Positions 10,641 to 59,433 of a stretch of DNA of 64,000 nt are shown here, piece by piece. The position numbers were made by a program, and so were the translations under genes. The stretch is from Acidobacteriota bacterium (GTDB lineage Bacteria; Acidobacteriota; Vicinamibacteria; Vicinamibacterales; UBA2999). The stretch covers positions 13 through 64,012 of the forward strand of contig JAUSDY010000128.1 in assembly GCA_030650395.1 (NCBI GenBank). The letters run 5' to 3'. How positions within the stretch are numbered: position 1 is the stretch's first letter; each line of letters begins with the position of its first letter. A model generated the notes under the pieces. It had not been told where the DNA came from. It did not search any database and saw only the letters and a program-made list of their open reading frames with translations.

Positions 10641-11173
10641 GGTGTTTCGGTAATACCTGCGCGATGGTTGGCGGCGCGCGCCATCGTGAAGAGCAGATCC
10701 GACAGGCGATTGAGATACACCATCACGATCGGTTCGACCGCGTCGGAACCGAGCGACAGCACCGACCGTTCGGCGCGCCGGCAGACGGTGCGCGCGAAGT
10801 GCAGCGCGGCGCCGGCCGGCGTTCCATCCGACAGGATGAAATGCCGCAGCGGCGCGATCTCGGTATCGAGGCGATCGATCCAGCCTTCGAGCCGCGCGAT
10901 AGTCGCGTCGTCTATGACGATTTTCTCGACGCGCCTGGCAATCTTGTGCGACGGATCGGCTAGCCGCGCACCAAGCGCGAACAGGTCGCGTTGCAGCGCG
11001 AGGCAGATCTCGTCGAGATCCGGCGGCAGGCCCGCAGCGCGGACCACGCCGAGGCACGCCTGCACTTCGTCGACGTCGCCGTACGCCACGACGCGCGGGT
11101 GCGTCTTGCTGACGCGCGTGCCGTCGAACAGGCTGGTGTCGCCCGAATCACCGGTCTTCGTGTAGATGGACAC
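10634..11173 (-). CDS. PduO-type ATP:cob(I)alamin adenosyltransferase
   Basis: N-terminus MSIYTKTGDSGDTSLFDGTRVSKTHPRVVAYGDVDE is typical of the family. 179 aa. GTG start. Confidence 0.85.
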   Translation of the reverse strand: MSIYTKTGDSGDTSLFDGTRVSKTHPRVVAYGDVDEVQACLGVVRAAGLPPDLDEICLALQRDLFALGARLADPSHKIARRVEKIVIDDATIARLEGWIDRLDTEIAPLRHFILSDGTPAGAALHFARTVCRRAERSVLSLGSDAVEPIVMVYLNRLSDLLFTMARAANHRAGITETPW

Positions 11174-11186
11174 TGTAGGATTATAG

Positions 11187-11208
11187 GGCCGGGACTAAAG
11201 TCCCGGCC
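11187..11208. repeat. Short hairpin GGCCGGGAC-TAAA-GTCCCGGCC
   Basis: Perfect 9-bp stem with a TAAA loop (complement TTTA). Lies in the divergent intergenic region between the adenosyltransferase gene and the mutY-like gene. Confidence 0.9.
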
Positions 11209-11221
11209 TCCCGGCATCACC

Positions 11222-11899
11222 TTGCTTCACACTAGACGGGCACATCCGCTCCCTGCACCTCCACTGCGGCAACGCTTTCGCCGCAACCTGCTGGCGTGGT
11301 ACCGCGTCAACGGCCGGGATCTGCCGTGGCGCAACACCGCCGACCCGTACCACATCCTCGTGTCCGAGATCATGCTGCAGCAGACGCAGGTCGATCGCGT
11401 GCTGCCGAAGTACCACGAGTGGCTCGGCAAGTATCCGAGTTTCGCGGTGCTCGCCGAGGCCAAGCCCGCGGAAGTGACCAAGACGTGGTACCCGCTCGGC
11501 TACAACATCCGGCCGCGCCGGCTGCAGTCGATCGCGCAGCAGGCCGTCGAGAAGTACGACGGGCGCTTACCTTCCGATCACGACACGCTGATGTCGTTCA
11601 AAGGGATCGGCGCCTACACCGCCGGCGCGATCCGCAGCTTCGCGTTTCGTGAGCGCGCCGCCATTCTCGACACCAACGTGGCGCGGGTGTTGTTCAGGAT
11701 TTTCGTCGGCAAGGGTGATCCAAAAGCCCACGCGATGAAGAAACGGTTGTGGGCGCTGTCGGCGGCGGTGCTTCCCCACAAGCACGTCTTCGATTTCAAC
11801 CAGGCGTTGATGGATTTCGGCGCCACGCACTGCAGCGCGCGCAAGCCGAAGTGCCCGGCGTGCCCGATGCGCCGTTTCTGCAAATCGGCGACAGCGTAG
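11222..11899 (+). CDS. MutY-family adenine DNA glycosylase, catalytic HhH-GPD/FeS domain only
   Basis: LLAWYRVNGRDLPWRNTADPYHILVSEIMLQQTQVDRV, plus a C-x6-C-x2-C-x5-C cluster (CSARKPKCPACPMRRFC). No MutT-like C-terminal domain. The start is uncertain: there is no ATG downstream of the opposite-strand gene, so I take the TTG at 11222. Confidence 0.7.
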   Translation: MLHTRRAHPLPAPPLRQRFRRNLLAWYRVNGRDLPWRNTADPYHILVSEIMLQQTQVDRVLPKYHEWLGKYPSFAVLAEAKPAEVTKTWYPLGYNIRPRRLQSIAQQAVEKYDGRLPSDHDTLMSFKGIGAYTAGAIRSFAFRERAAILDTNVARVLFRIFVGKGDPKAHAMKKRLWALSAAVLPHKHVFDFNQALMDFGATHCSARKPKCPACPMRRFCKSATA

Positions 11900-11919
11900 C
11901 GCGGAACTTTAGTTCCGCG
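11900..11919. terminator. Hairpin CGCGGAAC-TTTA-GTTCCGCG between convergent genes
   Basis: Starts one nucleotide after the mutY-like TAG. The mutT stop codon (TAA, minus strand) is formed by the TTTA loop. The same core GCGGAAC-TTTA-GTTCCGC recurs at 27241-27260. Confidence 0.6.
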
Positions 11920-12304
11920 ATTTCTGCGACGACAACACCACTATCAGCGCGCGGTCGGCTTCGGGAAAAGGCAACGACGACAGCTCGTTGCGAGGCACCC
12001 AGCGCATCTGCTGCCCCATCATCGGCTTCGGTTCGCCTTCGAACCCGCAGCGATAGAAAAACAGCTCCACCGTTTTCTCTGGATACCTGTGCGTGGCGGT
12101 GTGCACCAGCCCGCCGACGTGGCCGACGATGTCGAGCTCTTCGAAGAGCTCGCGGCGAAGCGCCTCGACATGAGTTTCGGCGTGATGGACTTTGCCGCCA
12201 GGGAATTCCCAATGGCCGGCCAGGTGCGTGCCGTCAGGCCTCAGCGTCAACAGGAACGACTCATCCTGTTCGATGACCGCTGCGACGACAACGACAGCGC
12301 TCAT
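11909..12304 (-). CDS. mutT: NUDIX pyrophosphohydrolase, MutT-like
   Basis: Nudix box GGKVHHAETHVEALRRELFEELDI. I take the start at the ATG at 12304, which makes an ATGA overlap with the upstream gene's stop. Confidence 0.75.
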   Translation of the reverse strand: MSAVVVVAAVIEQDESFLLTLRPDGTHLAGHWEFPGGKVHHAETHVEALRRELFEELDIVGHVGGLVHTATHRYPEKTVELFFYRCGFEGEPKPMMGQQMRWVPRNELSSLPFPEADRALIVVLSSQKSRN

Positions 12305-13365
12305 TGCGGAGAGGACGAACCGACCGGCACGGGCTGGATCCACGCGAGCTTGCCGTTCGATTCGATGACCTTGGCACGCACGTACCCCTCATCGCCTTTG
12401 AAGGTGTAGCTCGCCGTCGGCGTCGTCTGTTCGCTCAGCACTGTCCCCTGCCGGCCGATGAACTGAATGCGATAACGGCTCGACGGCTCTTCCTTGACGG
12501 CAATGGTGAGCGCGGTCTTCGTGGCATCGACGGAGCGAAGCTCGACGCCGGTCGACGAATAGAAGTCGCCACGCTCGAGCGCCTCGACGAGCGCGCGCGC
12601 CTCGAGCCGCGGCGACCGCACGTAGACCCAACCCTGACCCGGTCTCGGCGCCGCCGGATCCTCCGGCCGCTTGAAGTAATGCGCGTCGTCCACCGCCACG
12701 CCGTAAAGCAGCTTGCCGCTCGACAGAATGCGGTCCCACGTTTCTTCGAGCCCGGGTACGCCGCCGCCACCGAGGTTGTTCACGAACGGATGGCCGTTGA
12801 ACACCTCGAACAGGCGCGTGCGCTGGATCTGCCCGAGCTCATCCGGCGAGATCGCCCAGCCATAGTTGGGGTGATTGATGCTCGGCACGCCTCGCGCGTC
12901 GCGGATCGCATCGACCATCCGCTGCACCATATCGACGACCGATCTCCCACCCGGAGGCTGGACCAGTCGCTCGACCTCGAGGCCGTTGATGTGGATCGGT
13001 TTATCGCCAAAGCGATCGGTGATCTCCTCGCCTTTCACGACCAGGAACTTGTCGTCCGCGCCGTGCAGCGCGTTGAGGCCCGTCACGCTCGTCAGGTAGT
13101 TGTGGTCGGTGAGCACGAGGAAGTGATAGCCGCGCTCGCGGTACCACGTGACGACCGCGTCGGGCGTCGAGTCGCCGTCGCTGTTCAGCGTGTGCGTGTG
13201 GAGGTTGCCTTTGAACCACAGGGCTTCCACCCCAGCGCGGCTGCCGCGCTGGGGGCCCGGTTGAGGGCTTGGGGGCTTGAGGGCTTGAGAGCCCGACATC
13301 ACTGCACCTGCAGATCCAAAGGCCGCAATGAGAAGCACGAGACGGGCTCTTGAGAAATGTGTCAT
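12301..13365 (-). CDS. Secreted PHP-domain metallohydrolase (CehA/McbA-like)
   Basis: Signal peptide, then NLHTHTLNSDGDSTPDAVV...FLVLTDHN (PHP His/Asp motifs). It carries family D repeat 13221-13294 in frame just after the signal peptide. Confidence 0.7.
   Translation of the reverse strand: MTHFSRARLVLLIAAFGSAGAVMSGSQALKPPSPQPGPQRGSRAGVEALWFKGNLHTHTLNSDGDSTPDAVVTWYRERGYHFLVLTDHNYLTSVTGLNALHGADDKFLVVKGEEITDRFGDKPIHINGLEVERLVQPPGGRSVVDMVQRMVDAIRDARGVPSINHPNYGWAISPDELGQIQRTRLFEVFNGHPFVNNLGGGGVPGLEETWDRILSSGKLLYGVAVDDAHYFKRPEDPAAPRPGQGWVYVRSPRLEARALVEALERGDFYSSTGVELRSVDATKTALTIAVKEEPSSRYRIQFIGRQGTVLSEQTTPTASYTFKGDEGYVRAKVIESNGKLAWIQPVPVGSSSPQ
13221..13294. repeat. Family D element in frame in the PHP-domain gene
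   Basis: Sequence gggcttccaccccagcgcggctgccgcgctgggggcccggttgagggcttgggggcttgagggcttgagagccc, which encodes LKPPSPQPGPQRGSRAGVEAL. Confidence 0.9.
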
Positions 13366-38574: not shown

Positions 38575-38862
38575 CTAGACGACTTTCTTGGGCAGGACCG
38601 CGTCTTTCAGCTGCTTCACGATGCGCGCTTTGACGACGGTCTTGGCGGGGATCTCGATCGGCTGCTTCGTCGCGGGATTGCGGCCCGTGCGCGCCTTGCG
38701 GTGCTGCACCACGAGCTTGACCATCCCGGGAATGACGAACTCGCCCGTACGCTTCAGCTCCTTCTCACACAGGATCGCCAGCTCGTCGAAGAACTCGCGT
38801 GACTGCGTGCGCTTGACGTCGAACCGTTCGGCGAAGTGTGAAAAGAGCTCCGACTTGCCCAT
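38575..38862 (-). CDS. HU/IHF-family DNA-binding protein
   Basis: MGKSELFSHFAERF...GMVKLVVQHRKARTGRNPATKQPIEIPAKTVVKARI. The RNP.T motif of the beta-arm is present. Confidence 0.85.
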   Translation of the reverse strand: MGKSELFSHFAERFDVKRTQSREFFDELAILCEKELKRTGEFVIPGMVKLVVQHRKARTGRNPATKQPIEIPAKTVVKARIVKQLKDAVLPKKVV

Positions 38863-38965
38863 CCTCCGGGCTTCGTCCATCGTGTCCCCCAAGGTCTAAG
38901 GTTTGCGGAGCGTATGCTAACCCCGCCGCTTGGGGCTGTCAATCGCCCTCAAGGCAGAATCCCTC

Positions 38966-39056: not shown

Positions 39057-39407
39057 ATGCCCACCGTGCCGATCGAGACGTTTCCGAACCCGCGCCCCGA
39101 GCGCGAGTACGAGATCGCGATCGAGTGCCCCGAGTTCACCTCGATGTGTCCCAAGACGGGACTCCCCGACTTTGGCGTCATCCGCATCCGTTACACGCCG
39201 GCGGCGCGATGCCTCGAGCTCAAGGCCCTCAAATACTATCTGCTCGAGTTCCGGAACAAGGGAATTTTCTACGAGGCGGCCACCAACCAGATTCTCGATG
39301 ATTTGGTCGCCGCATGCGAGCCCCGGCGCATGACGGTGACCGGGGATTTCACCGCCCGCGGCGGCATCACCACCAAAGTCACCGCGGAATACCCAGTTGA
39401 AAGTTGA
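39057..39407 (+). CDS. queF: NADPH-dependent 7-cyano-7-deazaguanine reductase QueF (unimodular type)
   Basis: Catalytic-Cys context EFTSMCPKTGLPDF and the QueF motif ELKALKYYLLEF. 116 aa from the ATG at 39057. Confidence 0.9.
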   Translation: MPTVPIETFPNPRPEREYEIAIECPEFTSMCPKTGLPDFGVIRIRYTPAARCLELKALKYYLLEFRNKGIFYEAATNQILDDLVAACEPRRMTVTGDFTARGGITTKVTAEYPVES

Positions 39408-39420
39408 AAGTTGAAAGTTA
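39394..39420. repeat. AGTTGAA heptamer array (about 4 copies)
   Basis: It contains the queF stop codon and the TTG start of the Smr ORF. It is the inverted partner of 39716-39743. Confidence 0.9.
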
Positions 39421-39686
39421 GGCAGGACGACGGCCCGGTCCGGGTTCCGATCGAAGACGCGATCGACCTTCATAGCTTCGCGCCGCGCGATGTGATCGCC
39501 GTGGTCGACGACTATCTCGAGGCCGCGCGCGACGCCGGATTCATCGAGGTTCGGCTCATTCACGGCCGCGGCACCGGCGCGCAGCGCGCCGCGATCCAGC
39601 GCCGGCTTCGCGATCACCCGCTGGTCGAACGTTATTGGGATGCGCCGGAGTCTCACCTTGGGGCAACAGTCGTAAGGCTGAAGTGA
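39411..39686 (+). CDS. Smr-domain protein
   Basis: IDLHSFAPRDVIAVVDDYLEAARDAGFIEVRLIHGRGTG is the Smr signature (LH.....HG.G). The TTG start lies inside a repeat, so the start is uncertain. Confidence 0.7.
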   Translation: MKVRQDDGPVRVPIEDAIDLHSFAPRDVIAVVDDYLEAARDAGFIEVRLIHGRGTGAQRAAIQRRLRDHPLVERYWDAPESHLGATVVRLK

Positions 39687-41230: not shown

Positions 41231-41289
41231 TCGAACTATCTGCGGCTCTGATGTGTGTCCTGCGGCCCCTGCGCGATAAGATCCCGGTC

Positions 41290-43920
41290 ATGAAATCGCG
41301 GCCCATCGCGGTGGTCGTCGCGCTGCTCCTGTCGGCGGCGCTGGGTGCGCAGGCGCCCGCCATAACATCCAGCGTCCAGAGCCCGGAATCTTTCTTCGGC
41401 TTCCGCATGGGCGCCGACCGCGAGCTCGCCGACTGGCCGAGCCTGCAGAAGTACTTCGAGGACGTCGCTGCGGCGTCTGATCGTGTCGACATCGTTGATG
41501 CCGGGCCGTCGACGGGTGGACGGCGATTGATCGCGGCCGTCGTCACCGCTCCGGACAACGTCGCTCGTCTCGAAGAGATTCGCCTCAACAGCATGCGGCT
41601 GTCTGACCCGCGCACGCTGGACGAGGCCGGGGCGGCGGCGATCGTCGAGCGCCAGCCGGTGATCGTCGCCATCGGCATGAGCATTCATGCCACGGAAATC
41701 GCCGCGACCCAGGCGGCGCCGGAGCTGCTGCACACGCTCGCAACCTCGAACGATCCCGAGGTGCTCCGCACCTTGCGCGACGTCGTGCTGATCCTCTTTC
41801 CATCGCTCAATCCCGATGGGCACGTCATCACGGTGGATTGGTATCGCAAGTGGAAAGGATCCGAGTTCGAAGGCACCGGCATGCCGTGGCTGTACCACGA
41901 CTACGTCGGCCACGACATCAATCGCGACGCCTTCATGATGAACATGGCGGAGAACCGGACGCTGTCGGGGTTCTTCTACCGGCGCTGGCATCCGCAAGTG
42001 TTCCTGACGATGCACCAGATGGGGCCGCGCGGGGCGCGCTTCTTCGTGCCGCCGAACGTCGATCCGATCGATCGCAACTACGACCCGCTGATCTGGCGAA
42101 TCGCGGGCCTGCTCGGGCATGCGATGGCGCTGTCGCTCGAAGAGGATGGCCGCTCGGGCGTGCTGCAGAACGCGCTCTACGATTACTACTGGCCGGGCTA
42201 CGAAGACTCGGCGCCGCTCGGGCACAACACCGTGAGCCTGCTCACCGAGGCGGCCAGCGTGCGCGTGGCGTCGCCGATCACGGTCGCGCCCGAGCAGCTG
42301 CTTGGCGGGCGCGGCTTTCCCGATCACCAGCCCTCCACCACTTTTCCTCATCCCTGGCCCGGCGGCGACTGGCGCCTCCGCGACATCGTGAATTACGACT
42401 TGTCGGCCGCGCGCGGCCTGCTTGGCGCGGCGGCCCACTACCGCGGCGAGCTGCTCCGAGATTTTTTCAGGATGGGCCGGACCCAGGTCGCGCTTGGGTT
42501 GAAGGGCGGACCGTTCGCCTACATCATTCCGCCGGATCAGTTTGACGTGCACGCGGCTCGCAAACTGACGCAGTTGATGATCGATGGCGCCGTCGAGATC
42601 CAACGGACGCTCGAGCCGTTTCGCGTCGCCGAGACCGTCTACCCGCAGGGCACCGACATCATCCTGATGGCGCAGCCGTATCGCGCCTACGCCAAGACCT
42701 TGCTCGAGGTGCAGCACTACCCGGTTCGCCGTCCGGCCGGGGGCGGGGCGCCCGATCGGCCGTACGACGTCGCTGGTTGGACGCTGCCGCTGCAGATGAA
42801 CGTCAGGGTCGATCGCATCGATCAGTACTTCGAGCCGCCGGCCACCACGCGGCTCGAGCGCGCGTCGTTGCCGCCGGCACAGGTCTGGGGCGACACTCGC
42901 AAGCCCGCCTATTACGTCGTCGACGGGCGCGGCAACGGGCCGAGCATTGCGATCAATCGCCTGCAGAAGATCGGCGCACGAGTGTCGTGGACCACCGCGC
43001 CGCTCGCGCTGCAGGGCTTCACGTATCAGCCAGGCGCGATCGTGGTTGCAGAAGCGAAGGGCGCGCTCGAGACCGTCACGTCGATTGCACGCGACCTCGG
43101 GTTGCGCGCGACCGCCGCGGCCGGCCGCCTGCCGCAAGACACGCGACCGCTGGGGCGCGTCCGGGTCGGGCTTTACAAGCCGTGGGTCGAGAACATCGAC
43201 GAAGGCTGGACGCGCTGGCTGCTCGAACAGTACGAGTTTCCCTTCGAGACGATCGCGGATGCCGACATCCGGCGCGGCAGCCTGCGCGCCCGATTCGACG
43301 CCATCGTGATTCCCGATCAGGCCGCCGAGCGCGCGATCAACGGGCATCCCCACGGCACGATGCCACCCGCATACACCGGTGGACTCGGCATGGAGGGCGC
43401 CGACATGTTGCGCCAGTTTGTCGACGCGGGTGGAACGCTGGTGACGCTCGATTCCGCCAGCGATCTCGCGGTGAATCTTTTTGGCGCGCCGGTCAGGAAC
43501 GTGACGCGCAACCTGTCGCCAAGTGATTTTTTCTGCCCCGGATCGATCGTGCAGCTCGAGCTGGATGCGGATCCGCTGACGACCGGCGTGCCGCGTGTGA
43601 TTGCGGGATTCTTCAGCTTCAGCAGTGCGTTCGACCTCGTTCCACCGGCAAGCGCGGCTCCCGAATCGCCGACATCGGCAACCGCTCGCATCGTCGCGCG
43701 CTACGCAAAGAGCAACGTGCTGTTGAGCGGCTGGCTGGAAGGCGAGCAGGTCATCGCCGGCAAGGGCGCCATCGTGGAGCTCAAGTCCGGTCAGGGGCGC
43801 GCGATCCTGTTCGCATTCCGGCCTCAGCACCGCGGCCAGTCGCACGCCACGTTCAGGCTGTTTTTCAACGCACTGCACACCGCCCAGCAAGCAGTTCCTG
43901 CCACATCCCGCGGCCGCTGA
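41290..43920 (+). CDS. Secreted M14-family zinc carboxypeptidase-like protein with a large C-terminal extension
   Basis: Signal peptide MKSRPIAVVVALLLSAALGAQA. SIHATEIA (H-x-x-E) and FPSLNPDGH. The C-terminal roughly 500 aa are unassigned. Confidence 0.7.
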   Translation: MKSRPIAVVVALLLSAALGAQAPAITSSVQSPESFFGFRMGADRELADWPSLQKYFEDVAAASDRVDIVDAGPSTGGRRLIAAVVTAPDNVARLEEIRLNSMRLSDPRTLDEAGAAAIVERQPVIVAIGMSIHATEIAATQAAPELLHTLATSNDPEVLRTLRDVVLILFPSLNPDGHVITVDWYRKWKGSEFEGTGMPWLYHDYVGHDINRDAFMMNMAENRTLSGFFYRRWHPQVFLTMHQMGPRGARFFVPPNVDPIDRNYDPLIWRIAGLLGHAMALSLEEDGRSGVLQNALYDYYWPGYEDSAPLGHNTVSLLTEAASVRVASPITVAPEQLLGGRGFPDHQPSTTFPHPWPGGDWRLRDIVNYDLSAARGLLGAAAHYRGELLRDFFRMGRTQVALGLKGGPFAYIIPPDQFDVHAARKLTQLMIDGAVEIQRTLEPFRVAETVYPQGTDIILMAQPYRAYAKTLLEVQHYPVRRPAGGGAPDRPYDVAGWTLPLQMNVRVDRIDQYFEPPATTRLERASLPPAQVWGDTRKPAYYVVDGRGNGPSIAINRLQKIGARVSWTTAPLALQGFTYQPGAIVVAEAKGALETVTSIARDLGLRATAAAGRLPQDTRPLGRVRVGLYKPWVENIDEGWTRWLLEQYEFPFETIADADIRRGSLRARFDAIVIPDQAAERAINGHPHGTMPPAYTGGLGMEGADMLRQFVDAGGTLVTLDSASDLAVNLFGAPVRNVTRNLSPSDFFCPGSIVQLELDADPLTTGVPRVIAGFFSFSSAFDLVPPASAAPESPTSATARIVARYAKSNVLLSGWLEGEQVIAGKGAIVELKSGQGRAILFAFRPQHRGQSHATFRLFFNALHTAQQAVPATSRGR

Positions 43921-44015: not shown

Positions 44016-46397
44016 GTGGAATCCGCACAACGCGTACTCGCTCCAGGCGAGACCGTCACGGCACGTGGCGAGCAGTGGCGTGTCTCTCATGCCGAGCAAT
44101 TCCCCGGGTGCGTGCTCGTCACGCTTGATGGCGTGGAGCACGCCAACGCGGGCGTGCGGTTCACGCTGATCGCGCCGTTCGACACGATCGCGACGGTTGC
44201 GCTGAAGAAGCCTCGCCGGCGGAAGAGGGACTCAACACTCCGGGCAGCGCTCGCGGCGATCGCCGGCGCGCGGCCGGCCCGCGGCATGTGGACCGTGGCA
44301 AAGGCCAGGGTCGATCTGCTTGCCTATCAATTGGAACCAGCGCTGGCCGTGCTTGGCGGTGCGACCCGGGTGCTCTTGGCCGACGGTGTCGGCCTCGGCA
44401 AGACGATTCAAGCCGGGTTGATCCTCTGCGAGCTTCGCGCGAGAGGTCTCGTCGATCGCGCACTGATCCTCACGCCAGCGGGTTTGCGCGACGCGTGGGC
44501 CGCGGAGCTGCGTGAGCGCTTTGGTCTTCAGCCGGCGGTGTTCGATCAATCGGCGATCGCCAATCAGCTGCCGGGACTGCCGGTTGGCTTCAATCCCTGG
44601 ATGGCGCACGCGATCGTGATCGCATCGATCGATCTCGTGAAGCGGCCGGAAGTGCTGGCCGCAGTCGAACAAGCGCCGTTCGATCTGCTGATCGCCGACG
44701 AGGCGCACCATCTCACGCCCGGGAGCGATCGCGGCTCCGCCGTCGATCGACTGGCGTCTCGAACCCCGTGGGTCGTCCTGGCATCCGCGACGCCGCATTC
44801 GGGCGATCAAGCTGCGTTCGATTACCTCACGCGACTCGGCGAGTGCGGCGATCGCATCGCGATCTTCCGGCGTACCCGCGCCGACGTCGGGCTCGGTTCA
44901 GGCCGGCGTGTCCATCTGCTTCCGGTGACACCGTCTTCACTCGAGATGCGGATGCTGAGCGGCGTCGAATCGTACGCGCGCGCGATCTGGCTGGGGCGCG
45001 GGAGGCACGACCGCGGCGCCCGGCTGGTCGCCATCCTGGTGGCCCGGCGGGCGGCGTCGAGCGCAATGGCGCTCGAGCGGACGCTGACGCGGCGCCTTCA
45101 CTTGATCTCAGGCCGGCACGACCCGGCGCCGGCGCAGCAGGCGCTTCCCTGGGACGATGCGGACGAGGCCGATGGTGACGCGCCCGCGGAACTATTAGGC
45201 CTTGCCGGACTGGACGATGGCGCCCGGGAGATCCGGCTGTTGGAGGATCTGATTGCCGTTGCCGCCGCGGCGAGGTCGAGCCCGACGAAGATTATCCGCG
45301 TTGCGCGCCTGATCGATCGCGTGCGCGAGCCGGTGCTGGTGTTCACCGAATACCGCGACACGCTCGACGCGCTGACCGAGGCGCTGTGCGGCACCCGCAA
45401 GATCGGTGCGCTGCACGGCGGCCTGCCGGCGGCGATGCGCGCCCGGATCGTGCGCGAGTTCAATCACGGCGGCCTCGATCTGCTGATTGCAACCGATACC
45501 GCCGGCGAGGGCCTCAACCTTCATCATCGCTGCCGTCTCGTCATCGACGTCGAGCTGCCGTGGAATCCGGTGCGCCTCGAACAGCGGATCGGCCGTGTCG
45601 ATCGCCTCGGCCAGCAACGGCGCGTGCACGCCATCCGCCTGCTTCACCGCGGCACGGTGGAAGACACCGTGCTGGCTCACCTCGAACGGCGCCGTCTGCG
45701 CGCGGGCGCCGCCCTGAATCTCACCACCGAAGAATGGCTGAACGAAGACGACATCGCCGCGGCGGCGCTGGGTCTCGTCGAACCGCCGCAACGCATCCGG
45801 CCGTTGTTGACGTCGGTGACCGTCGGCGCGGCCGGCGCAGAAGCGCAACGTCTCGTTCGCCAACGTGACGTGGCTAGTCGATGCGGCGCCAGGCCAGACC
45901 GCGCGTTGTGGAGCCCCACCCGTCATCGCTTCAACGCGTCCGCAGAAATGGTGGTGCTCTACACGCTGCAGCAACCTGGATCGCAGGGCCGAATCGCGGG
46001 TGCAGCATGCCGCGCGCTGCTGATCCAGATGCGCGGCGGCCCGGCCACGCGCCGCGACTGGCAGGCGTGGGTGAATCAATTGGACGAACAACTCGAGTCG
46101 TTGATCGCGACAGCCAGCATCAGCTACGCCCGTGATGTGGCCGCGCAGCTCGATCCGCTTCGCGTCAGTGCTGGTGGGCGAATTGACACCGCAAGAGATC
46201 GCCTGCGTCGATCATGGTTGAGCGAGCTGCAGGCGTCGCTGTTTGATGGGCGGGCCGAACGGCTCGCAGCCGCTCGCCAGCAAGCGCTCGATCGCCTGGA
46301 TGCCGCTTTGCTGCGCCGGGCCCTGTCGCTGACTCCCGCGCTACCCGGCGTCGCCGCGCGCCCGCGACTGATTGCGGTGTGGCCGCTCGAGAGATAG
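44016..46397 (+). CDS. SNF2/RapA-like superfamily 2 helicase/translocase
   Basis: Motif I ADGVGLGKT (nt about 44385), motif II LLIADEAHHL (about 44697), SATP, and the helicase C-terminal motifs ATDTAGEGLNL and WNPVRLEQRIGRVDRLGQ (about 45582). The N-terminal roughly 90 aa and the C-terminal roughly 230 aa are unassigned. GTG start. Confidence 0.9.
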   Translation: MESAQRVLAPGETVTARGEQWRVSHAEQFPGCVLVTLDGVEHANAGVRFTLIAPFDTIATVALKKPRRRKRDSTLRAALAAIAGARPARGMWTVAKARVDLLAYQLEPALAVLGGATRVLLADGVGLGKTIQAGLILCELRARGLVDRALILTPAGLRDAWAAELRERFGLQPAVFDQSAIANQLPGLPVGFNPWMAHAIVIASIDLVKRPEVLAAVEQAPFDLLIADEAHHLTPGSDRGSAVDRLASRTPWVVLASATPHSGDQAAFDYLTRLGECGDRIAIFRRTRADVGLGSGRRVHLLPVTPSSLEMRMLSGVESYARAIWLGRGRHDRGARLVAILVARRAASSAMALERTLTRRLHLISGRHDPAPAQQALPWDDADEADGDAPAELLGLAGLDDGAREIRLLEDLIAVAAAARSSPTKIIRVARLIDRVREPVLVFTEYRDTLDALTEALCGTRKIGALHGGLPAAMRARIVREFNHGGLDLLIATDTAGEGLNLHHRCRLVIDVELPWNPVRLEQRIGRVDRLGQQRRVHAIRLLHRGTVEDTVLAHLERRRLRAGAALNLTTEEWLNEDDIAAAALGLVEPPQRIRPLLTSVTVGAAGAEAQRLVRQRDVASRCGARPDRALWSPTRHRFNASAEMVVLYTLQQPGSQGRIAGAACRALLIQMRGGPATRRDWQAWVNQLDEQLESLIATASISYARDVAAQLDPLRVSAGGRIDTARDRLRRSWLSELQASLFDGRAERLAAARQQALDRLDAALLRRALSLTPALPGVAARPRLIAVWPLER

Positions 46398-46400
46398 ATC

Positions 46401-49400
46401 GTGATTCCGGGTCTTGGCGGCCGGCTGCTGTCGCACGCGTATGTCGAGCAGCAATTGCTGCCCGCGCTCGCCGCGTTGCCCGGCCACGCGGACGTCTCCG
46501 CTCTCGGGCGACAGCTGGCGCGCTGGTGGCGGCACGTCAAGGCGACGCTCGGCCCGGCATCGAGCGCTCGCGCCATTTGCGATGTTGCGGCCGCCTCGCT
46601 GCTCGAGATCCTCGGACATCAAATGCCGGCGATGGCGCCTCACGACTGGGGACTAGCTGGATCAATGGGTCGCTCCCCGATTGCGCTCGTTGTGCTGCCA
46701 TGGGCCAGCTCGCTCGATTCGTCGTGGACGCATGTGCTCCGCGCGGCCCTCGCCTGTGGCGCTCGCTGGGCCATGGTCACCAACGGCCACTCGCTCCGCA
46801 TCGTGGACTGCTCGCGAATCTGGACGCGGCAGGCGGTCGATTTCGATCTCGCCGCGCTGCTCAATCACGGCAGGGGTGTGGCGGCGCTCGTCGCACTCGC
46901 CGGCGCGCGGTCGACGCTCTCGACGTTCGTGGCGGAATCGGATCGCCATTCGGCCAGGGTCTGTCACTCGCTTGGCGACGGCGTGCTTGCCGCTCTCCCG
47001 CAGCTAACCGAATCGCTCGGCCGATCACCCAGTGCCTTCGAACAAGCGCTGACACTTGTTTATCGCGTCCTCTTTCTGCTCTTCGCCGAAGCGCGAGGGC
47101 TCGTGCCCGTTTGGAACGAGGTCTATCGCGATGCTTACACGATCGACGCGCTCTGCCGCCGCGTGACCGAGCGGCCCGGCGCGCCGGGCCTCTGGGCGTC
47201 ACTGCAGGCGATTTCGCGCATGGCGCACACCGGTTGTCGTGCCGGAGAGCTGACCGTCACACCGTTCAATGGCCGCCTGTTCTCGCCGCTTCATGCTCCG
47301 CTCGTCGAGCGGCGCGCGGTGCCCGACTCGATCGCCCAAACGGTGGTGCTGTCGCTGGCCACCGTGGAATCCGCAACCGGCCGCCACCGGATCGCGTACC
47401 ACGACCTTGGTGTCGAACAGCTCGGATCGGTCTACGAGCGCGTCCTGGAGCACGAGGTCGCGCGCACGCCCGCCTCGATCGTGCTCAGGAAGACCTCAGC
47501 CGAACGCAAATCGACCGGCAGCTTCTACACGCCGCGCTCGATCACCGAATTCGTGGTGCGACGCACGCTTCACCCGCTCGTCGATCTCAAGACCGCGGAC
47601 GAGATCCTGTCGCTGCGCGTCGTCGACCCGGCAATGGGAAGCGGGGCGTTCCTCGTGGCCGCGTGCCATTACCTCGCGGACCAGTGCGAACAGGCGCTGA
47701 TCCGCGACGGGTCGCGGCGCGCCGGCGAGATCACCACTGCGGATCGGATCGGCCTGCGCCGTCGGGTTGCCGAGCGGTGTCTGTACGGCGTGGATCTGAA
47801 CCCGACCGCTGTGCAGCTTGCGCGATTGTCGCTGTGGCTCACCACGCTGGCCTCCGATCGCCCGCTCACCTTTCTCGATCATCACCTGGCGGTGGGCGAC
47901 AGTTTGCTTGGCGCGCGCCTGTCGGATCTGGCGCGCTCTCCTGTCGCCGGCCCACCGTCGCGACGCCGCAACCTCGCTCCGCAGCTGCCGCTATTTGACG
48001 ACGATGTCGCGGGTGTGGCGCGGGAGGTCGTCTTGCCCGCGCGGATCCGGCTGGCACTCGAGCCGTCGGACACCCTCGACGCGGTGAAAGCGAAAGAACG
48101 GACGCTCGCCGCACTCGCGGCGACCAATGGCCCGTTCGCGAAATGGTCGGCGGCAGCCGACCTCTGGTGCGCGGCGTCGTTATGGCCCGGCGCACAACCG
48201 TCACCTGCCCTCGTGGCCGAAGGCCTCGCCGGCGTCCTGGGCGGGATCACGACGCTGCCGCGCGCCAAGCTTGCGGCGTGGATCGACGAAGCCTGCGCCA
48301 TCGCGCGCGCGCACGCCGTGTTCCATTGGGAGCTGGCGTTTCCGGAAGTGTTCTTCAACGCGGATGGACGGCCGCGTCCGCTCGGTGGGTTTGATGCGGT
48401 GATCGGCAACCCACCGTGGGACATGCTTCGCGCCGACACCGGATCGGCCGACGTGCGGCTGTCGGATCGATCGCGTACCGCTGCCCTGCTCCGGTTTTTC
48501 AGATCCTCCGGCACATACGCCTGCCAAGGCAGCGGACATGCCAATCGCTATCAGTTGTTTCTCGAGCGCGCCTGGCAACTGGCGAGACCCGGTGGGCGTT
48601 GGGGCCTGATTCTCCCGTCCGGCATCGCCACCGATCACGGCAGCTCGCTTCTGCGGAGACGGCTGTTCGACCGGTGCACCGTCGACACCTGGCTTGGCTT
48701 CGACAACCGCCACGCGATCTTCCCGATTCATCGCAGCGTGCGGTTCGTCTTGATGTCGGCGACCAACGGTGGTGCCACTGAGCGGCTCGATTTTCAATGC
48801 GGCTTGCAGAAGGCCGACGTCCTGGATCAGCTGCCGAGCGAGCCGCGCGAGAGCGCGGGGCACGGGGGGCTCTCCGTGTCTCGATCGAGGCTTGAATCCT
48901 GGGATCCCGAGCACCTGACAGTTCCCGAGATGTCCAGCCCGCAGGCACTTGGCATCTTCACCCGCGCCGCCGCCTCGCTGCCGCGACTGTCGTCGCCGGA
49001 AGCATGGGGCGCGAAGTTCGGCCGCGAGCTGAACGCCACCGACGACCGGCCGCACTTTGTCCCCTCGACTCGCGCGCTCCGCCGCTCGCTCGGGGCCAGC
49101 GGCACGTCTGGCGACGGGTTTCTGCCAATTGTCGAAGGCAAGCACCTGCAGCCGTTCCAGGTGATGCTCGATCACACCACCGCAAGCGTCCCGCGCGCGA
49201 CCGCCGCGAAGCTGATCGATCCGCGAACCAGCTTCGACCGCGAGCGTCTTGCCTATCGGGACATCGCGAGCGCCACCAACCGCGTGACGCTGATCGCCGC
49301 GTTGCTGCCGCGCAACACGCTCTCGACGCACACGGTGTTCTGCTTGAAGACCGCGCTCGACACCCGGGATCAGTGGTGCCTGCTCGCGCTTCTGAACAGC

Positions 49401-49733
49401 CTTCCTGCCAACTATCTGGTCAGGCTCAGCGTCACGACGCACGTGACGACGGCGCTGATGGCCCGTCTGCCAGTGCCGCGCCCATCGCGAACATCGGCGG
49501 CCTTCACCGAGCTCGTCACGCTGGCGCGCACGCTGGCTGAGAAGGGCATCGACGCCGCGCCCGAAGCGTACGCGCGGCTCAACGCGATCGCGGCAAACCT
49601 GTACGGACTAACGACCGAACAGTACGACCACGTCGTCGCCAGCTTCCCCCTCCTATCCCAGCAGCTCCGTGACCACTGCGTGACCGCATACCTGCATCAC
49701 ACAGAAACACAGAAGCACGGAAACACGGAATGA
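46401..49733 (+). CDS. Large N6-adenine DNA methyltransferase of the Eco57I/PglX/type IIG-like class, with a specificity-like C-terminal domain
   Basis: LFLLFAEARGLVP helical motif, GSFYTP, SAM motif I VVDPAMGSGAFLV (nt about 47619), FHWELAFPEVF and catalytic motif IV NPPW (nt 48408-48419). The C-terminal region has IVEGKHLQPF and YRDIASATNRVTLIAALLP. The start is 3 nt after the helicase stop. Confidence 0.88.
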   Translation: MIPGLGGRLLSHAYVEQQLLPALAALPGHADVSALGRQLARWWRHVKATLGPASSARAICDVAAASLLEILGHQMPAMAPHDWGLAGSMGRSPIALVVLPWASSLDSSWTHVLRAALACGARWAMVTNGHSLRIVDCSRIWTRQAVDFDLAALLNHGRGVAALVALAGARSTLSTFVAESDRHSARVCHSLGDGVLAALPQLTESLGRSPSAFEQALTLVYRVLFLLFAEARGLVPVWNEVYRDAYTIDALCRRVTERPGAPGLWASLQAISRMAHTGCRAGELTVTPFNGRLFSPLHAPLVERRAVPDSIAQTVVLSLATVESATGRHRIAYHDLGVEQLGSVYERVLEHEVARTPASIVLRKTSAERKSTGSFYTPRSITEFVVRRTLHPLVDLKTADEILSLRVVDPAMGSGAFLVAACHYLADQCEQALIRDGSRRAGEITTADRIGLRRRVAERCLYGVDLNPTAVQLARLSLWLTTLASDRPLTFLDHHLAVGDSLLGARLSDLARSPVAGPPSRRRNLAPQLPLFDDDVAGVAREVVLPARIRLALEPSDTLDAVKAKERTLAALAATNGPFAKWSAAADLWCAASLWPGAQPSPALVAEGLAGVLGGITTLPRAKLAAWIDEACAIARAHAVFHWELAFPEVFFNADGRPRPLGGFDAVIGNPPWDMLRADTGSADVRLSDRSRTAALLRFFRSSGTYACQGSGHANRYQLFLERAWQLARPGGRWGLILPSGIATDHGSSLLRRRLFDRCTVDTWLGFDNRHAIFPIHRSVRFVLMSATNGGATERLDFQCGLQKADVLDQLPSEPRESAGHGGLSVSRSRLESWDPEHLTVPEMSSPQALGIFTRAAASLPRLSSPEAWGAKFGRELNATDDRPHFVPSTRALRRSLGASGTSGDGFLPIVEGKHLQPFQVMLDHTTASVPRATAAKLIDPRTSFDRERLAYRDIASATNRVTLIAALLPRNTLSTHTVFCLKTALDTRDQWCLLALLNSLPANYLVRLSVTTHVTTALMARLPVPRPSRTSAAFTELVTLARTLAEKGIDAAPEAYARLNAIAANLYGLTTEQYDHVVASFPLLSQQLRDHCVTAYLHHTETQKHGNTE

Positions 49734-49737
49734 AAAG

Positions 49738-49800
49738 CCACAGGAGCGCCAGGAGATCAGGAGCCTATTTTTCTCCTGGTCTCCTGACCTCTTGTTTTGG
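49738..49800. terminator. Hairpin built from CAGGAGA words; bidirectional terminator candidate
   Basis: The core is CAGGAGATCAGGAG / CTCCTGGTCTCCTG. It follows the MTase TGA, and the panE stop (49765-49767) lies in the loop. T-runs flank it on both strands. It uses the same word family as 23597-23653. Confidence 0.6.
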
Positions 49801-50727
49801 TCCAGAGGCCCAGGGTTTCAGTACGGAGTAAAGCGTCGCGATGATCGGCGTGGGCAACCCGTGTTTCGTTGCGCGCCGGATCGCGGCACCTTGCAGCGCC
49901 TCGACCTCGATGCGCTTGCCTTGCTCGAGATCGATCAACAACGACGACCTCGTCGTCGGCGGGATGTTGTCCATGTACTCCTTCAGCGTGTCGAAGCGGT
50001 TCGGTGAGATCGTCACGCCCTCGGCCCGCGCGATGGCGGCGACCTCGCGCGAGCACGCGTAGAACATGTCCTGCGCGAGCGGGACCTTCCAGACCTGACC
50101 GATCGGCGCGCGCGCCGCGCCGGTGAAGCCGGAAAACGCGACGAGATACACGAACTTGTCCCAGATGGGCACGCGCGCGTCCGCCACGGGCGTGACCTGA
50201 ATGTCGGCTGTCGCCAGCACGTCGGCGATCGCCTGCACGCGCGGCGAGATCCGGCTCGTATCGCCAGACACCTCACCAAAGATGATCGAGCGGTGCACGC
50301 CGGTCTGAACGATCAGGCCCGGGCCTTCGAGCGCCGTGGCCACGTACGTCGTGCCGCCGAGCACGCGCGGCGGGCCCACCACGGCCGCCACCTCATCCAC
50401 ACTGTCGACACCGTTCTGCAGCGTCAGCACCACCGTCTCGGGACCCATCAACGGCGCCAGCATCGGCAGCGCCGTGAGGTTGTCGTAGGCCTTCACCGAC
50501 ACGATGGCGACGTCCACCGGCCCGACCTTGCCAGTGTCGCTCTCCGCCTGCGCACGCACGGTGAAATCGCCGAGCTTGGCGCTCCTCACCTCGAGGCCCT
50601 TCGCGCGGATCGCCTCCAAATGCGCGCCGCGCGCGATGAACGTGACGTCCTGCCCGGCGCGGGACAGTTTCGCGCCGAAGTAACCCCCGACCGCGCCTGA
50701 CCCCAGAATCGCAAATCGCATCCGCAA
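49765..50727 (-). CDS. panE: 2-dehydropantoate 2-reductase
   Basis: MRFAILGSGAVGGYFGAKLSRAGQDVTFIARG. The C-terminal ApbA-type domain has SSLLIDLEQGKRIEVE. Confidence 0.85.
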   Translation of the reverse strand: MRMRFAILGSGAVGGYFGAKLSRAGQDVTFIARGAHLEAIRAKGLEVRSAKLGDFTVRAQAESDTGKVGPVDVAIVSVKAYDNLTALPMLAPLMGPETVVLTLQNGVDSVDEVAAVVGPPRVLGGTTYVATALEGPGLIVQTGVHRSIIFGEVSGDTSRISPRVQAIADVLATADIQVTPVADARVPIWDKFVYLVAFSGFTGAARAPIGQVWKVPLAQDMFYACSREVAAIARAEGVTISPNRFDTLKEYMDNIPPTTRSSLLIDLEQGKRIEVEALQGAAIRRATKHGLPTPIIATLYSVLKPWASGPKQEVRRPGEK

Positions 50728-58593: not shown

Positions 58594-59433
58594 TTATGCA
58601 GAACTGTGCAGAATGAACCGCTCGATCGCCTGGGCGAGGCCGGCCTTATCGTTGCTGCCGGTGACGTAAAAGCCGTCCTGAAACAGCTCGGGCTCTGCGT
58701 TCCCCATGATCACGCCGGTGCCGGCCCACCGCAGCATGCCGAGGTCGTTATGGTTGTCGCCGATCGCCATCACCTCGCCTTGCGCCACGCCGAAAAGCGC
58801 CGCCACTTCGGCCAGGCCGGTGCCCTTGGTAATGCCGGCCGCGCACACGTCGACCATCGAAAAGTCGCGGCTGGGGTATTCAGTGAGCAGCACCTCGAGG
58901 TCCGGCGCGATCGCATGCGCCGCCAGGTGCGCGGCGATCGCGCGCATCTCGTCGACGCAGCCATTGAACGCAATCTGAACCGGGTCTTCCACCATCGCAT
59001 CTTCCAGCCGCGCCACGGCCTGGATGATCTGGTGGTTGCGCTCCTTGAATCGGCGCCGGTTCGGATGGCTCCAATCCATCAGGTCGTAAACGAGTTGTCC
59101 GGCGAGCGGCCGGTCGAACACCGCGGTCGCTGCGTCGCGCCACGCCACCGTGGCGCCCAGCACCTCGAGCGCCGTCGCTTGCGGAAGCAGCCGCCGCAAC
59201 AGCGTCTCCCCCGCCCGCGATCGCGCGATGGCGCCGTTATGGACGATCAGCGTGATCGAATCCGGCAGCTGGCCGAGCGCCTGAAGGGCGAAATGAAAAC
59301 TGCGCCCGGTCGCGATCACCACCTTCACGCCACGCGCAACGGCCTGATCGATGGCCTCGATGTTCGCTGCCGGAACACGACCGCGGCTGTCGAGCAGCGT
59401 GCCGTCGATATCAATGGCGACTAGTCTGATCAA
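58594..59433 (-). CDS. Cof-type HAD-IIB phosphatase
   Basis: VAIDIDGTLLD (motif I) and GDNHNDLGML (motif IV). Confidence 0.85.
   Translation of the reverse strand: MIRLVAIDIDGTLLDSRGRVPAANIEAIDQAVARGVKVVIATGRSFHFALQALGQLPDSITLIVHNGAIARSRAGETLLRRLLPQATALEVLGATVAWRDAATAVFDRPLAGQLVYDLMDWSHPNRRRFKERNHQIIQAVARLEDAMVEDPVQIAFNGCVDEMRAIAAHLAAHAIAPDLEVLLTEYPSRDFSMVDVCAAGITKGTGLAEVAALFGVAQGEVMAIGDNHNDLGMLRWAGTGVIMGNAEPELFQDGFYVTGSNDKAGLAQAIERFILHSSA

Follow-up and report, generated by a model that had tools for sequence, protein, structure and literature searches.

What does a helicase-methyltransferase pair of the kind found in bacterial defence systems do when no effector gene of such a system lies near it? 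This question is raised by a 64,000-nucleotide stretch of DNA from an Acidobacteriota bacterium of the class Vicinamibacteria (order Vicinamibacterales; assembly GCA_030650395.1, contig JAUSDY010000128.1), hereafter called the window. Its forward strand carries the gene of a RapA-like SNF2 ATPase related to DrmD, ArmA and BrxHII (44016 to 46397; 793 residues, GTG start), recognized from the open reading frame (ORF) and from Pfam, PADLOC, NCBIfam and hhalign matches. The next gene on this strand encodes a gamma-class N6-adenine DNA methyltransferase (MTase) related to DrmMI and ArmB (46401 to 49733; 1110 residues, GTG start), recognized from the ORF, from Pfam and PADLOC matches and from clusters of homologues. 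The two genes are translationally coupled at the junction TAG-ATC-GTG (46395 to 46403, forward strand), where 3 nt separate the SNF2 stop codon from the MTase start codon. Both ORFs, their spacing and a set of SNF2 and MTase motifs had been described in an initial annotation made from the letters of the sequence, and all of them were recovered in the translations.

BrxHII/RapA-like helicases paired with PglX-like methyltransferases are common to BREX type 3, DISARM class 1 and ARMADA I and II, and the published pairs always lie beside a gene for a YprA-like helicase(-nuclease) or beside PglZ/BrxC (10.1101/2025.09.15.676423; PMC13463889). ARMADA consists of ArmA, a RapA-like Swi2/Snf2 helicase, ArmB, a PglX-like adenine MTase, ArmC, a YprA-like helicase-nuclease, and, in type II, ArmD; the literature thus agrees with the initial annotation that such pairs are otherwise parts of bigger systems, ARMADA I and II being an addition to those it had named (10.1101/2025.09.15.676423; PMC13463889). 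The module itself is known from these systems; what is new is that the pair, which occurs in at least 556 species-level genomes, stands alone in the 80 loci examined, is vertically inherited and is under purifying selection. We give an even chance to the explanation that this pair is an effector-less, domesticated and chromosomally fixed motor-plus-methylase module of the ARMADA/DISARM type, which would write a conserved N6-methyladenine (m6A) motif with the SNF2 protein assisting or licensing the MTase.

Distribution, inheritance and loss of the pair

When one genome per GTDB species was scanned, a relative was encoded in at least 556 species-level genomes. Eighty of these loci (44-83% identity), from metagenome-assembled genomes (MAGs), were kept for analysis of the 10 kb on either side of the pair, and almost all were labelled Vicinamibacteria, Vicinamibacterales or Acidobacteriota. 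Full-length MTase homologues (~1100 residues) formed more than 120 clusters at 56-94% identity, which were assigned to Acidobacteria or Vicinamibacterales where they were named. An exhaustive profile search returned about 45 full-length MTase clusters (50% identity) with scores of at least 816 bits, of which the most divergent members were still named Vicinamibacteraceae or Acidobacteriota, cluster look-ups for a cultured host yielding MAG names only; past a gap in the scores came a lower tier of longer proteins (1230-1500 residues, at most 714 bits). A SNF2 gene lay immediately 5' of the MTase gene, on the same strand, in every one of the 80 loci with enough upstream DNA, so that the association noticed in the window is conserved across genomes. 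Measured in 21 distinct loci, the distance from the SNF2 stop codon to the MTase start codon stayed between -7 and +7 nt, and the two genes overlapped by 4 nt in 12 of these loci.

The pair belongs to a conserved block with the gene order E2-E3-sigma54 regulator-HU-QueF-Smr-ParA-like-(M14)-SNF2-MTase-panE-amidohydrolase-hypothetical-Omp85-DUF3500, which holds down to about 50% MTase identity. In a deeper clade (44-48% identity), several loci keep the upstream part HU-QueF-Smr, and the downstream genes differ. Gene calls in the window agreed with the initial annotation in placing the pair between the gene of an M14 peptidase on the 5' side (41251 to 43920) and that of a PanE/ApbA reductase on the 3' side (49765 to 50727), the latter convergent with the MTase gene. 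Beyond these lie genes for an amidohydrolase, an AMP-ligase, Omp85, the E1, E2 and E3 subunits of a 2-oxoacid dehydrogenase, a sigma-54 response regulator and other metabolic proteins. The window neighbours of the pair are housekeeping genes.

Scanned with PADLOC, the other 46 window proteins included no defence component, and in particular no DrmA, DrmB, DrmC, PglZ, BrxC, BrxA, BrxF or phospholipase D (PLD) protein; in the 80 loci, the clusters of neighbours that recur within 10 kb likewise included none of DrmA/B/C, YprA-like, PLD, PglZ or BrxC. The recurrent clusters whose representatives were read looked like housekeeping types: a TauE-like permease, molybdopterin oxidoreductase subunits, YchF, a rhodanese, an aldehyde dehydrogenase, a 2-oxoglutarate dehydrogenase and others. 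In four relatives with Pfam-annotated gene calls, neither a DEAD+MZB helicase gene nor a PLD gene lay within the same distance. Neither in the window nor among the recurrent neighbours of the 80 loci were genes of mobile elements or of defence seen beside the pair. Thus, the claim that the pair stands alone holds for DrmABC, YprA-like, PglZ, BrxC and PLD proteins both in the window and in the surveyed surroundings of the 80 species-level genomes.

Pairwise identities of the MTases were correlated with those of the SNF2 proteins (Spearman 0.89) and with those of PanE, the amidohydrolase, the M14 peptidase and the ParA-like protein (0.84-0.92), the control comparison of PanE with the amidohydrolase giving 0.88. 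The divergence of the pair therefore tracks that of its neighbours as expected for co-inheritance and not for a mobile island. These comparisons indicate that the pair has been vertically inherited at one fixed chromosomal locus across Vicinamibacteria. The defence-island setting that had been considered at the outset did not hold up, since the locus is vertically inherited and syntenic across the class and its specificity domain is conserved. The ratio of nonsynonymous to synonymous substitution rates (dN/dS) was 0.20-0.25 for the pair (0.36 for the SNF2 gene in the most distant comparison) versus 0.10-0.18 for the neighbours. Judged by these ratios, both genes are clearly under purifying selection.

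The conservation of the MTase is unevenly distributed along the protein. Mean pairwise identity was 0.57 in the target-recognition domain (TRD; residues 866 to 1035) and 0.59-0.66 in the catalytic parts; it was 0.38 in the N-terminal domain, and the linkers were also far below the TRD. The ratio of TRD identity to catalytic identity was 0.92 in the family versus 0.65 among outgroup MTases of the ARMADA/DISARM type. In an E. coli ARMADA island, armB is the variable gene (PMC13463889). From the conservation of the TRD, we infer that the recognition motif is conserved across the family.

Occupancy of the locus was examined by searching metagenome contigs with the neighbouring panE rather than with the MTase. 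A convergent MTase was found in 49 of the 53 panE-anchored loci that extended at least 600 nt past the panE 3' end. Where at least 2.5 kb lay beyond panE, MTase sequence was present in 29/30 loci and the pair was intact in about 26 (~87% or more). In one locus (L128) the pair is absent and panE adjoins the ParA-like gene. A second (L130) retains only a 228-nt remnant of the MTase C terminus, and a third (L136) only MTase residues 675 to 1108, the SNF2 gene being gone. In a fourth (L145), an internal deletion joins SNF2 residues 7 to 134 to MTase residues 681 to 1096. Because most loci are intact and natural deletion and decay variants exist, the pair is regarded as ancestral and usually retained, yet dispensable. 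A literature search returned nothing relevant on a methylome or methyltransferase of Vicinamibacteria, and the four variant loci would provide natural controls for a methylome comparison.

The base composition of the pair departs slightly from that of its surroundings, with a GC content of 0.68-0.69 versus about 0.64-0.67 in the flanks and a GC content at third codon positions (GC3) of 0.77-0.80 versus 0.83-0.88. The higher overall GC stems from first and second codon positions (GC1 and GC2), raised by an arginine- and alanine-rich composition. Because the locus is syntenic, we attribute the GC/GC3 offset to protein composition or to weaker codon adaptation. Recent horizontal transfer was considered as its cause and rejected, synteny and divergence tracking both pointing to vertical descent.

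In about 5 of the 80 relatives, a PDDEXK_3 ORF (PF13366, 'GxxExxY' type; 123-140 residues) lies on the same strand as the MTase gene, right after its stop codon or overlapping it. Copies were found in L002/L045 (13429 to 13800), L009, L010, L013 and L065 (Pfam 3e-37 on the L065 copy). This ORF is absent from the window and looks like a sporadic insertion rather than a conserved partner.

Domains and catalytic motifs of the two proteins

The SNF2 translation contains GVGLGKT, DEAHH, SATPHSG and QRIGRVDRLGQ, and Pfam assigns SNF2-rel_dom and Helicase_C. Among 52 homologues, invariant positions comprised the Walker A motif GLGKT (G126 to T130; 44391 to 44405), residues D228, E229, H231 and H232 at the Walker B/motif II sequence DEAH (D228 to H231; 44697 to 44708), and Q523, R524, G526, R527, R530, G532 and Q533 of motif VI, QRIGRVDRLGQ (Q523 to Q533; 45582 to 45614), all encoded on the forward strand. 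The best PADLOC match was DrmD (2e-73), and BrxHI and BrxHII were matched at 3e-60 and 4e-57. The protein covers only the N-terminal 636 of the 1040 positions of the PADLOC DrmD profile, and the NCBIfam DISARM_DrmD equivalog model scored 267 bits against a cutoff of 610 bits.

In sequence matches, the closest solved relative was RapA (3e-46), other SNF2 proteins and eukaryotic remodellers lying at ~1e-20. Alignment with E. coli RapA by hhalign (probability 99.9) placed SNF2 residues 7 to 537 on RapA residues 54 to 606, which include the second half of the RapA N-terminal domain. The small beta domain at the SNF2 N terminus (residues 1 to 95; 44016 to 44300, forward strand) is homologous to that half according to hhalign, with 'VLAPGETVTARGEQWRV' aligned to RapA residues 54 to 70. 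Across the 52 homologues this domain conserves the pattern PG..V..RGE.W...C.V..L.G...PFD. Pfam, searched at E values up to 10, gave nothing meaningful on SNF2 residues 1 to 100 or 561 to 793. The C-terminal region (residues 566 to 793; 45711 to 46394, forward strand) evolves fast, with a mean pairwise identity of 0.21-0.30, and contains the conserved motif Q739-x-S-L-F743-D744-x-R746. An AlphaFold2 (AF2) model of the C-terminal 233 residues had a predicted local distance difference test (pLDDT) score of 83. Its best Foldseek match was the C-terminal part of RapA (6bog; E 8.8e-3, probability 0.96); no match reached E 1e-3, and the list contained no nuclease-like fold. The C-terminal region is called a RapA-like domain because of this top-ranked, sub-threshold match together with the RapA profile alignment. 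These comparisons place the SNF2 protein in the RapA-like branch, a resemblance that takes in both of its terminal domains.

The MTase translation contains VLFLLFAEARGLVP, SFYTP, DPAMGSGAFLV, FHWELAFPEVF and GNPPW, and Pfam assigns Eco57I (1.4e-19), N6_Mtase (8e-14) and MmeI_Mtase. The protein is composed, in order, of an N-terminal domain (residues 1 to 210), a helical region (residues 211 to 360), a gamma-class catalytic region and a TaqI_C-like specificity region. The catalytic region (residues 361 to 790; 47481 to 48770) contains Pfam and PADLOC matches. The S-adenosylmethionine (SAM) motif DPAMGSGAF (D409 to F417; 47625 to 47651) lies upstream of the catalytic NPPW (N670 to W673; 48408 to 48419), both are invariant in 27 homologues, and the C-terminal TRD is weakly matched, an arrangement that identifies a gamma-class N6-adenine MTase. 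The TRD (residues 866 to 1035; 48996 to 49505) was located by a weak Pfam TaqI_C match (E 0.043), and the NCBIfam model TIGR02987 covers residues 908 to 1086. The helical region (47031 to 47480; these four features are likewise on the forward strand) contains LFLLFAEARGLVP and has a mean pairwise identity of 0.61; Y221 to E230 are invariant in the 27 homologues, and the PADLOC DrmMI profile PDLC02642 matches residues 212 to 358. At the extreme C terminus (49690 to 49733), many homologues keep (Q/H/R)ATE(T/A)-(Q/R)(K/R)H(G/R) in the position of 'HHTETQKHGNTE', the 75 residues before it being variable.

The best PADLOC match of the MTase was DrmMI (3e-106), followed by REase_MTase_IIG over the MTase and TRD parts; PglX was matched weakly (2e-12). 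The match to the DrmMI profile began at profile position 547, and the N-terminal part of the MTase is about 180 residues shorter. NCBIfam models of BREX MTases gave 20-45 bits versus cutoffs of 400-900. By these profile scores, the pair is closer to DrmMI/ArmB than to PglX, a revision of the initial designation as PglX/DrmMI-like. When the PDB was searched with a sequence profile of the MTase family, the catalytic core gave only weak matches (BsaXI, CamA, at 1.6e-6, and BseCI), and PglX and MmeI were not recovered.

The N-terminal domain of the MTase (residues 1 to 210; 46401 to 47030, forward strand), which the initial annotation had left unassigned, resembles a degenerate PD-(D/E)xK nuclease. 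Pfam gave nothing meaningful on residues 1 to 215 at E values up to 10. The AF2 model (pLDDT 93) had as its top Foldseek match a fragment with the nuclease domain of a type I HsdR subunit (3h1t; E 0.19, probability 0.92); the same list contained EcoR124I HsdR, RecU and the type IIG enzyme BpuSI, and none reached E 1e-3. The catalytic D...(D/E)xK was not found: strands 85 to 88 and 94 to 99 are hydrophobic and conserve neither a lysine nor an acidic residue, and in the whole Vicinamibacteria MTase family the places where D and (D/E)xK are expected hold hydrophobic or variable residues. In the alignment, an outgroup protein (P0383) still has 'KPDYALF...VGDAKVW' where the window MTase has 'IALVVLPW'. 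The motif W-A-x-V-T-N-G-x-x-L-R-I-V-D has the counterpart WGLVTNGRQLRLL in a Thermus homologue, and we take both to resemble the two strands located after the active site of HsdR-N-type domains. The nuclease-like call was made because of the top-ranked, sub-threshold Foldseek matches combined with this sequence context, P0383 in particular. The sequence context supports a relic PD-(D/E)xK fold devoid of catalytic residues, the fold similarity being below significance. Judged from Pfam, Foldseek and inspection of the active-site positions, neither the SNF2 protein nor the MTase contains a recognizable nuclease active site, in line with what had been read from the sequence originally.

Relation to known systems and rival explanations

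The nearest outgroup MTases (P0306 and P0307) share ~30% identity with the window MTase along nearly the whole protein. Their operons, located in variable regions, encode a SNF2 protein with RapA_C (~30-31% identical to the window SNF2 protein over the N-terminal domain and motor), the MTase and a DEAD/MZB/MTES_1575 YprA-like helicase of ~1676 residues; they match the published ARMADA layout. Plasmid homologues with 26-30% identity in Allomeiothermus and Rhodococcus likewise have ARMADA II-like and ARMADA I-like layouts with the YprA-like gene present. The window pair resembles ARMADA I/II in its core, in the order SNF2 then MTase, in tight adjacency and in the conservation of the NPPW, SAM and Walker motifs. 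Unlike ARMADA, it is accompanied by no ArmC/YprA-like or ArmD gene, be it in the window or, for the 80 species, at distances of up to 10 kb. Its proteins are smaller than those of the two outgroup operons (793 versus 979-1017 residues and 1110 versus 1239-1259 residues), and the SNF2 C terminus differs. The locus is syntenic and vertical with a conserved TRD, whereas ARMADA is island-borne with a variable TRD (PMC13463889). Thus, both the BrxHII/RapA-like helicase of ARMADA and its PglX-like MTase are represented in the window, and the adjacent ArmC (DUF1998) is absent.

Two Thermus megaplasmids, pTbrSNM4-1b of T. brockianus (L086; 5912 to 15654) and pTA78 of T. aquaticus (L087; 6962 to 15516), carry a helicase-related gene and an MTase gene directly after parA-parB on the same strand. 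The MTase is an Eco57I-family protein of 1308 residues, 29-30% identical to the window MTase, the N-terminal domain included. No YprA-like gene was found near either pair, and the surroundings contain a type III-A CRISPR system, abortive infection (Abi) and toxin-antitoxin genes and insertion sequence (IS) elements. These loci represent a second kind of stand-alone pair, located on replicons. A link to ParA-like proteins was considered, since parAB precedes the Thermus pairs; it was treated as coincidence, the ParA-like gene of Vicinamibacteria being divergently oriented and absent from the deeper clade.

DISARM class 1 pairs a SNF2-like helicase with an N6-adenine MTase, and its DrmD and DrmMI are the best PADLOC and NCBIfam matches of the window proteins, but the DISARM_DrmD score is below the cutoff and profile coverage is partial; DrmA (helicase), DrmB (DUF1998/MZB) and DrmC (PLD) are absent from the window. 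BREX type 3 likewise pairs a RapA/SNF2-type helicase (BrxHII) with a large Eco57I-family adenine MTase (PglXI), but PglX profiles are weak on the window MTase, and the window has no PglZ, BrxC, BrxA or BrxF. Type IIG and ISP enzymes (MmeI, BpuSI, LlaGI) resemble the window MTase in domain order: a PD-(D/E)xK-type domain at the N terminus is followed by a helical spacer, then by a gamma-class MTase and finally by a TRD. The window family differs from type IIG in the missing catalytic D...(D/E)xK of the N-terminal domain, and from type ISP in having its helicase as a separate SNF2 protein, with no Mrr active site and no fused type-I-like motor. The pair is therefore not a member of DISARM, ARMADA or BREX, whose defining effector genes are absent, nor of type IIG or ISP, since there is no active nuclease and the proteins are unfused. 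It shares the modification and motor module of DISARM, ARMADA and BREX and is not a categorically new system.

Orphan adenine MTases (Dam, CcrM, CamA) offer a different comparison: they are also vertical and syntenic, have no cognate nuclease and have conserved specificity, a feature that for the window MTase is judged from TRD identity. The window MTase differs in being much larger, of the defence-type PglX/DrmMI lineage, obligately paired with a SNF2 ATPase and not universally retained. In eukaryotes, SNF2-family ATPases are coupled to DNA methyltransferases in DDM1/LSH with DNMTs and in the fungal SNF2-MTase fusion DNMT5; these systems make 5-methylcytosine (5mC) rather than m6A and work on chromatin. 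DDM1 and LSH were among the sequence matches of the window SNF2 motor domain. This is an analogy only, in which the homology with the window pair is that of the generic SNF2 core and the coupling in bacteria is conjectural.

According to the domestication explanation, the module that in DISARM class 1, ARMADA I/II and BREX type 3 makes up the half responsible for modification and sensing would here methylate adenine on the host chromosome, in one motif that is fixed and probably asymmetric. The SNF2 protein would probably bind the MTase, and its ATP-driven translocation or DNA remodelling may serve to load the enzyme, to make scanning possible or to license methylation. Across the lineage, the pair would serve as an 'orphan' system, epigenetic or self-marking in nature, and not as a restriction-type killer. 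Of the two possibilities raised initially, a translocase-assisted epigenetic or marking system is favoured and a typical defence system is not. Several observations weigh against the domestication explanation. Conservation of the TRD is only an indirect sign of an unchanged motif, and the motif, and even DNA as the substrate, are extrapolated from homology. Every characterized relative of both proteins is a defence component (PMC13463889; 10.1101/2025.09.15.676423). In Serratia class 1 DISARM, DrmMI methylates the non-palindromic motif ACACAG, loss of the methylases causes no autoimmunity, and deletion of drmD plus drmMI nearly abolishes protection against phage Nami, so that the module can aid defence (10.1101/2021.12.28.474362). 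The pair evolves faster than its housekeeping neighbours, with a mean identity of 0.51-0.57 versus 0.72-0.74 and a higher dN/dS, and its N- and C-terminal domains diverge rapidly, a pattern that would also fit a conflict-driven gene. In about 4 of the 30 loci that were located independently, the pair is missing or broken, and its function is thus nonessential. Finally, a partner could be encoded elsewhere in these genomes, 10 kb on either side of the pair having been surveyed in each.

Much of this would also suit an old, stably resident anti-phage or anti-plasmid defence that works with no nuclease. The MTase would mark self, and on an unmethylated invader MTase-SNF2 translocation would block replication or transcription in a BREX-like manner. 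The defence associations of the relatives, the phage Nami result, the rapid evolution, above all of the terminal domains, and the occasional loss, typical of accessory functions, all speak for it, as do the Thermus megaplasmid pairs, set among CRISPR, Abi, toxin-antitoxin and IS genes with no YprA-like neighbour. We nonetheless consider it unlikely, if worth serious attention. Its fixed syntenic locus, vertical descent and intact occupancy of the large majority of loci are unlike patchy island-borne defence systems, its TRD is conserved and not diversified, and no mobile-element or defence genes flank it. In addition, ARMADA II defence needs all four genes, ArmC (the YprA-like helicase) and ArmD included, as well as the NPPW and Walker motifs (10.1101/2025.09.15.676423; PMC13463889), and in Serratia no effect of DrmMI alone on M13 was observed (10.1101/2021.12.28.474362). 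A split system, in which the effector is a YprA-like helicase-nuclease or DrmABC encoded elsewhere, or the syntenic Smr-domain protein, would suit a module that normally works with a separate effector and the 10-kb scope of the survey. We hold it to be improbable, DISARM, ARMADA and BREX genes being operonic by definition and in all examples seen. The Smr protein (91 residues; 39411 to 39686, forward strand) is a long-shot candidate. It has a nicking-endonuclease fold and is conserved across the class together with an HU-like gene (38575 to 38892, reverse strand) and QueF (about 39060 to 39407, forward strand), and in the deeper clade (for instance L072, L074 and L081) its gene lies directly 5' of SNF2 on the same strand, at ~90-500 nt. 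However, its translational coupling is to QueF, not SNF2 (its start is 4 nt after the QueF stop codon in the window and overlaps it in L001), and a divergently oriented ParA-like gene and the M14 gene separate it from the pair in the window clade. Small Smr proteins are, moreover, common housekeeping genes.

The relatedness to RapA, which extends from the N-terminal domain through the motor and includes the best fold match of the C terminus and the closest solved relative, would also allow a transcription-linked or RNA-directed role, in which the motor rides on or recycles RNA polymerase and delivers the methylase to transcribed DNA or to RNA. This role is quite improbable: RapA-like architecture is common to DrmD, ArmA and BrxHII of DNA-directed defence systems, only half of the RapA N-terminal domain is present, and the MTase carries a TaqI_C-like domain for DNA specificity, its family matches all being DNA MTases. 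Most remote is the notion of a decaying, functionless remnant of an ancient defence operon. The missing effector and the truncated or deleted loci could be taken that way, but this notion is contradicted by the evidence for selection. ORFs are full length in hundreds of species at 44-94% identity, catalytic motifs are invariant, dN/dS is about 0.2 and translational coupling is conserved.

The pair probably exemplifies how a defence module can be domesticated and become a system that marks DNA throughout a class. As an effector-free, compact and selected pair present in hundreds of genomes, it offers a natural minimal system for the role of the SNF2 protein beside PglX/DrmMI/ArmB-type methylases, and questions on methylation completeness, motif licensing and exclusion activity are open to it. 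The broader version of the domestication explanation, in which the class Vicinamibacteria carries the module as a core epigenetic machine, an m6A MTase dependent on a RapA-like SNF2 motor with a class-wide motif, is tentative and falls somewhat short of an even chance. If true, such a class-wide epigenetic writer would add to the conserved methylation systems of bacteria a new kind that depends on an ATP-driven motor, and would be a bacterial counterpart of the SNF2-assisted DNA methylation carried out in eukaryotes by DDM1/LSH with DNMTs and by DNMT5. It would also document that the modification and sensing half of ARMADA/DISARM can be kept for host functions after effector loss. Vicinamibacteria are abundant soil bacteria, and a shared m6A motif could then help methylation-based binning of metagenomes.

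Other features of the window

The hairpin terminator proposed initially between the convergent MTase and panE genes was confirmed in part. The inverted repeat is real (49741 to 49786; RNA folding dG -25.3 kcal/mol, z = -2.98) and overlaps the panE 3' end. It was not among the calls of a consensus terminator scan, its stem having no T-run directly behind it, and it is no canonical intrinsic terminator. A sigma-70 promoter scan around the pair gave no hit, such scans being uninformative for the phylum Acidobacteriota.

The earlier observation that no tRNA lies nearby was qualified by an ARAGORN call of tRNA-Phe (GAA) at 59015 to 59088 (forward strand). The call falls inside a high-GC3 ORF (58594 to 59433, reverse strand) that is conserved in relatives, in which its position matches a HAD-hydrolase gene, and Rfam at its gathering threshold found neither a tRNA nor any other RNA gene in the window. 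Probably a false positive, the call was rejected as an island boundary.

PADLOC matches among the other 46 window proteins were limited to a generic AAA+ protein (one protein against three RtcR-type models), the candidate family PDC-S07, a desaturase-type model and one 'REase_II'. The last, a match to the 'REase_II type II nicking endonuclease' at 1.7e-40, concerns a protein of 302 residues (10991 to 11896, forward strand) that Pfam identifies as an HhH-GPD glycosylase. It was rejected as the absent nuclease, being a repair glycosylase beside a NUDIX gene and 33 kb from the pair. The adjoining NUDIX gene (11912 to 12343, reverse strand) is MutT/MutY-C-like, and ordinary base-excision repair is the most likely function of the two. 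As this glycosylase exemplifies, the PADLOC 'REase_II' model can cross-match repair enzymes.

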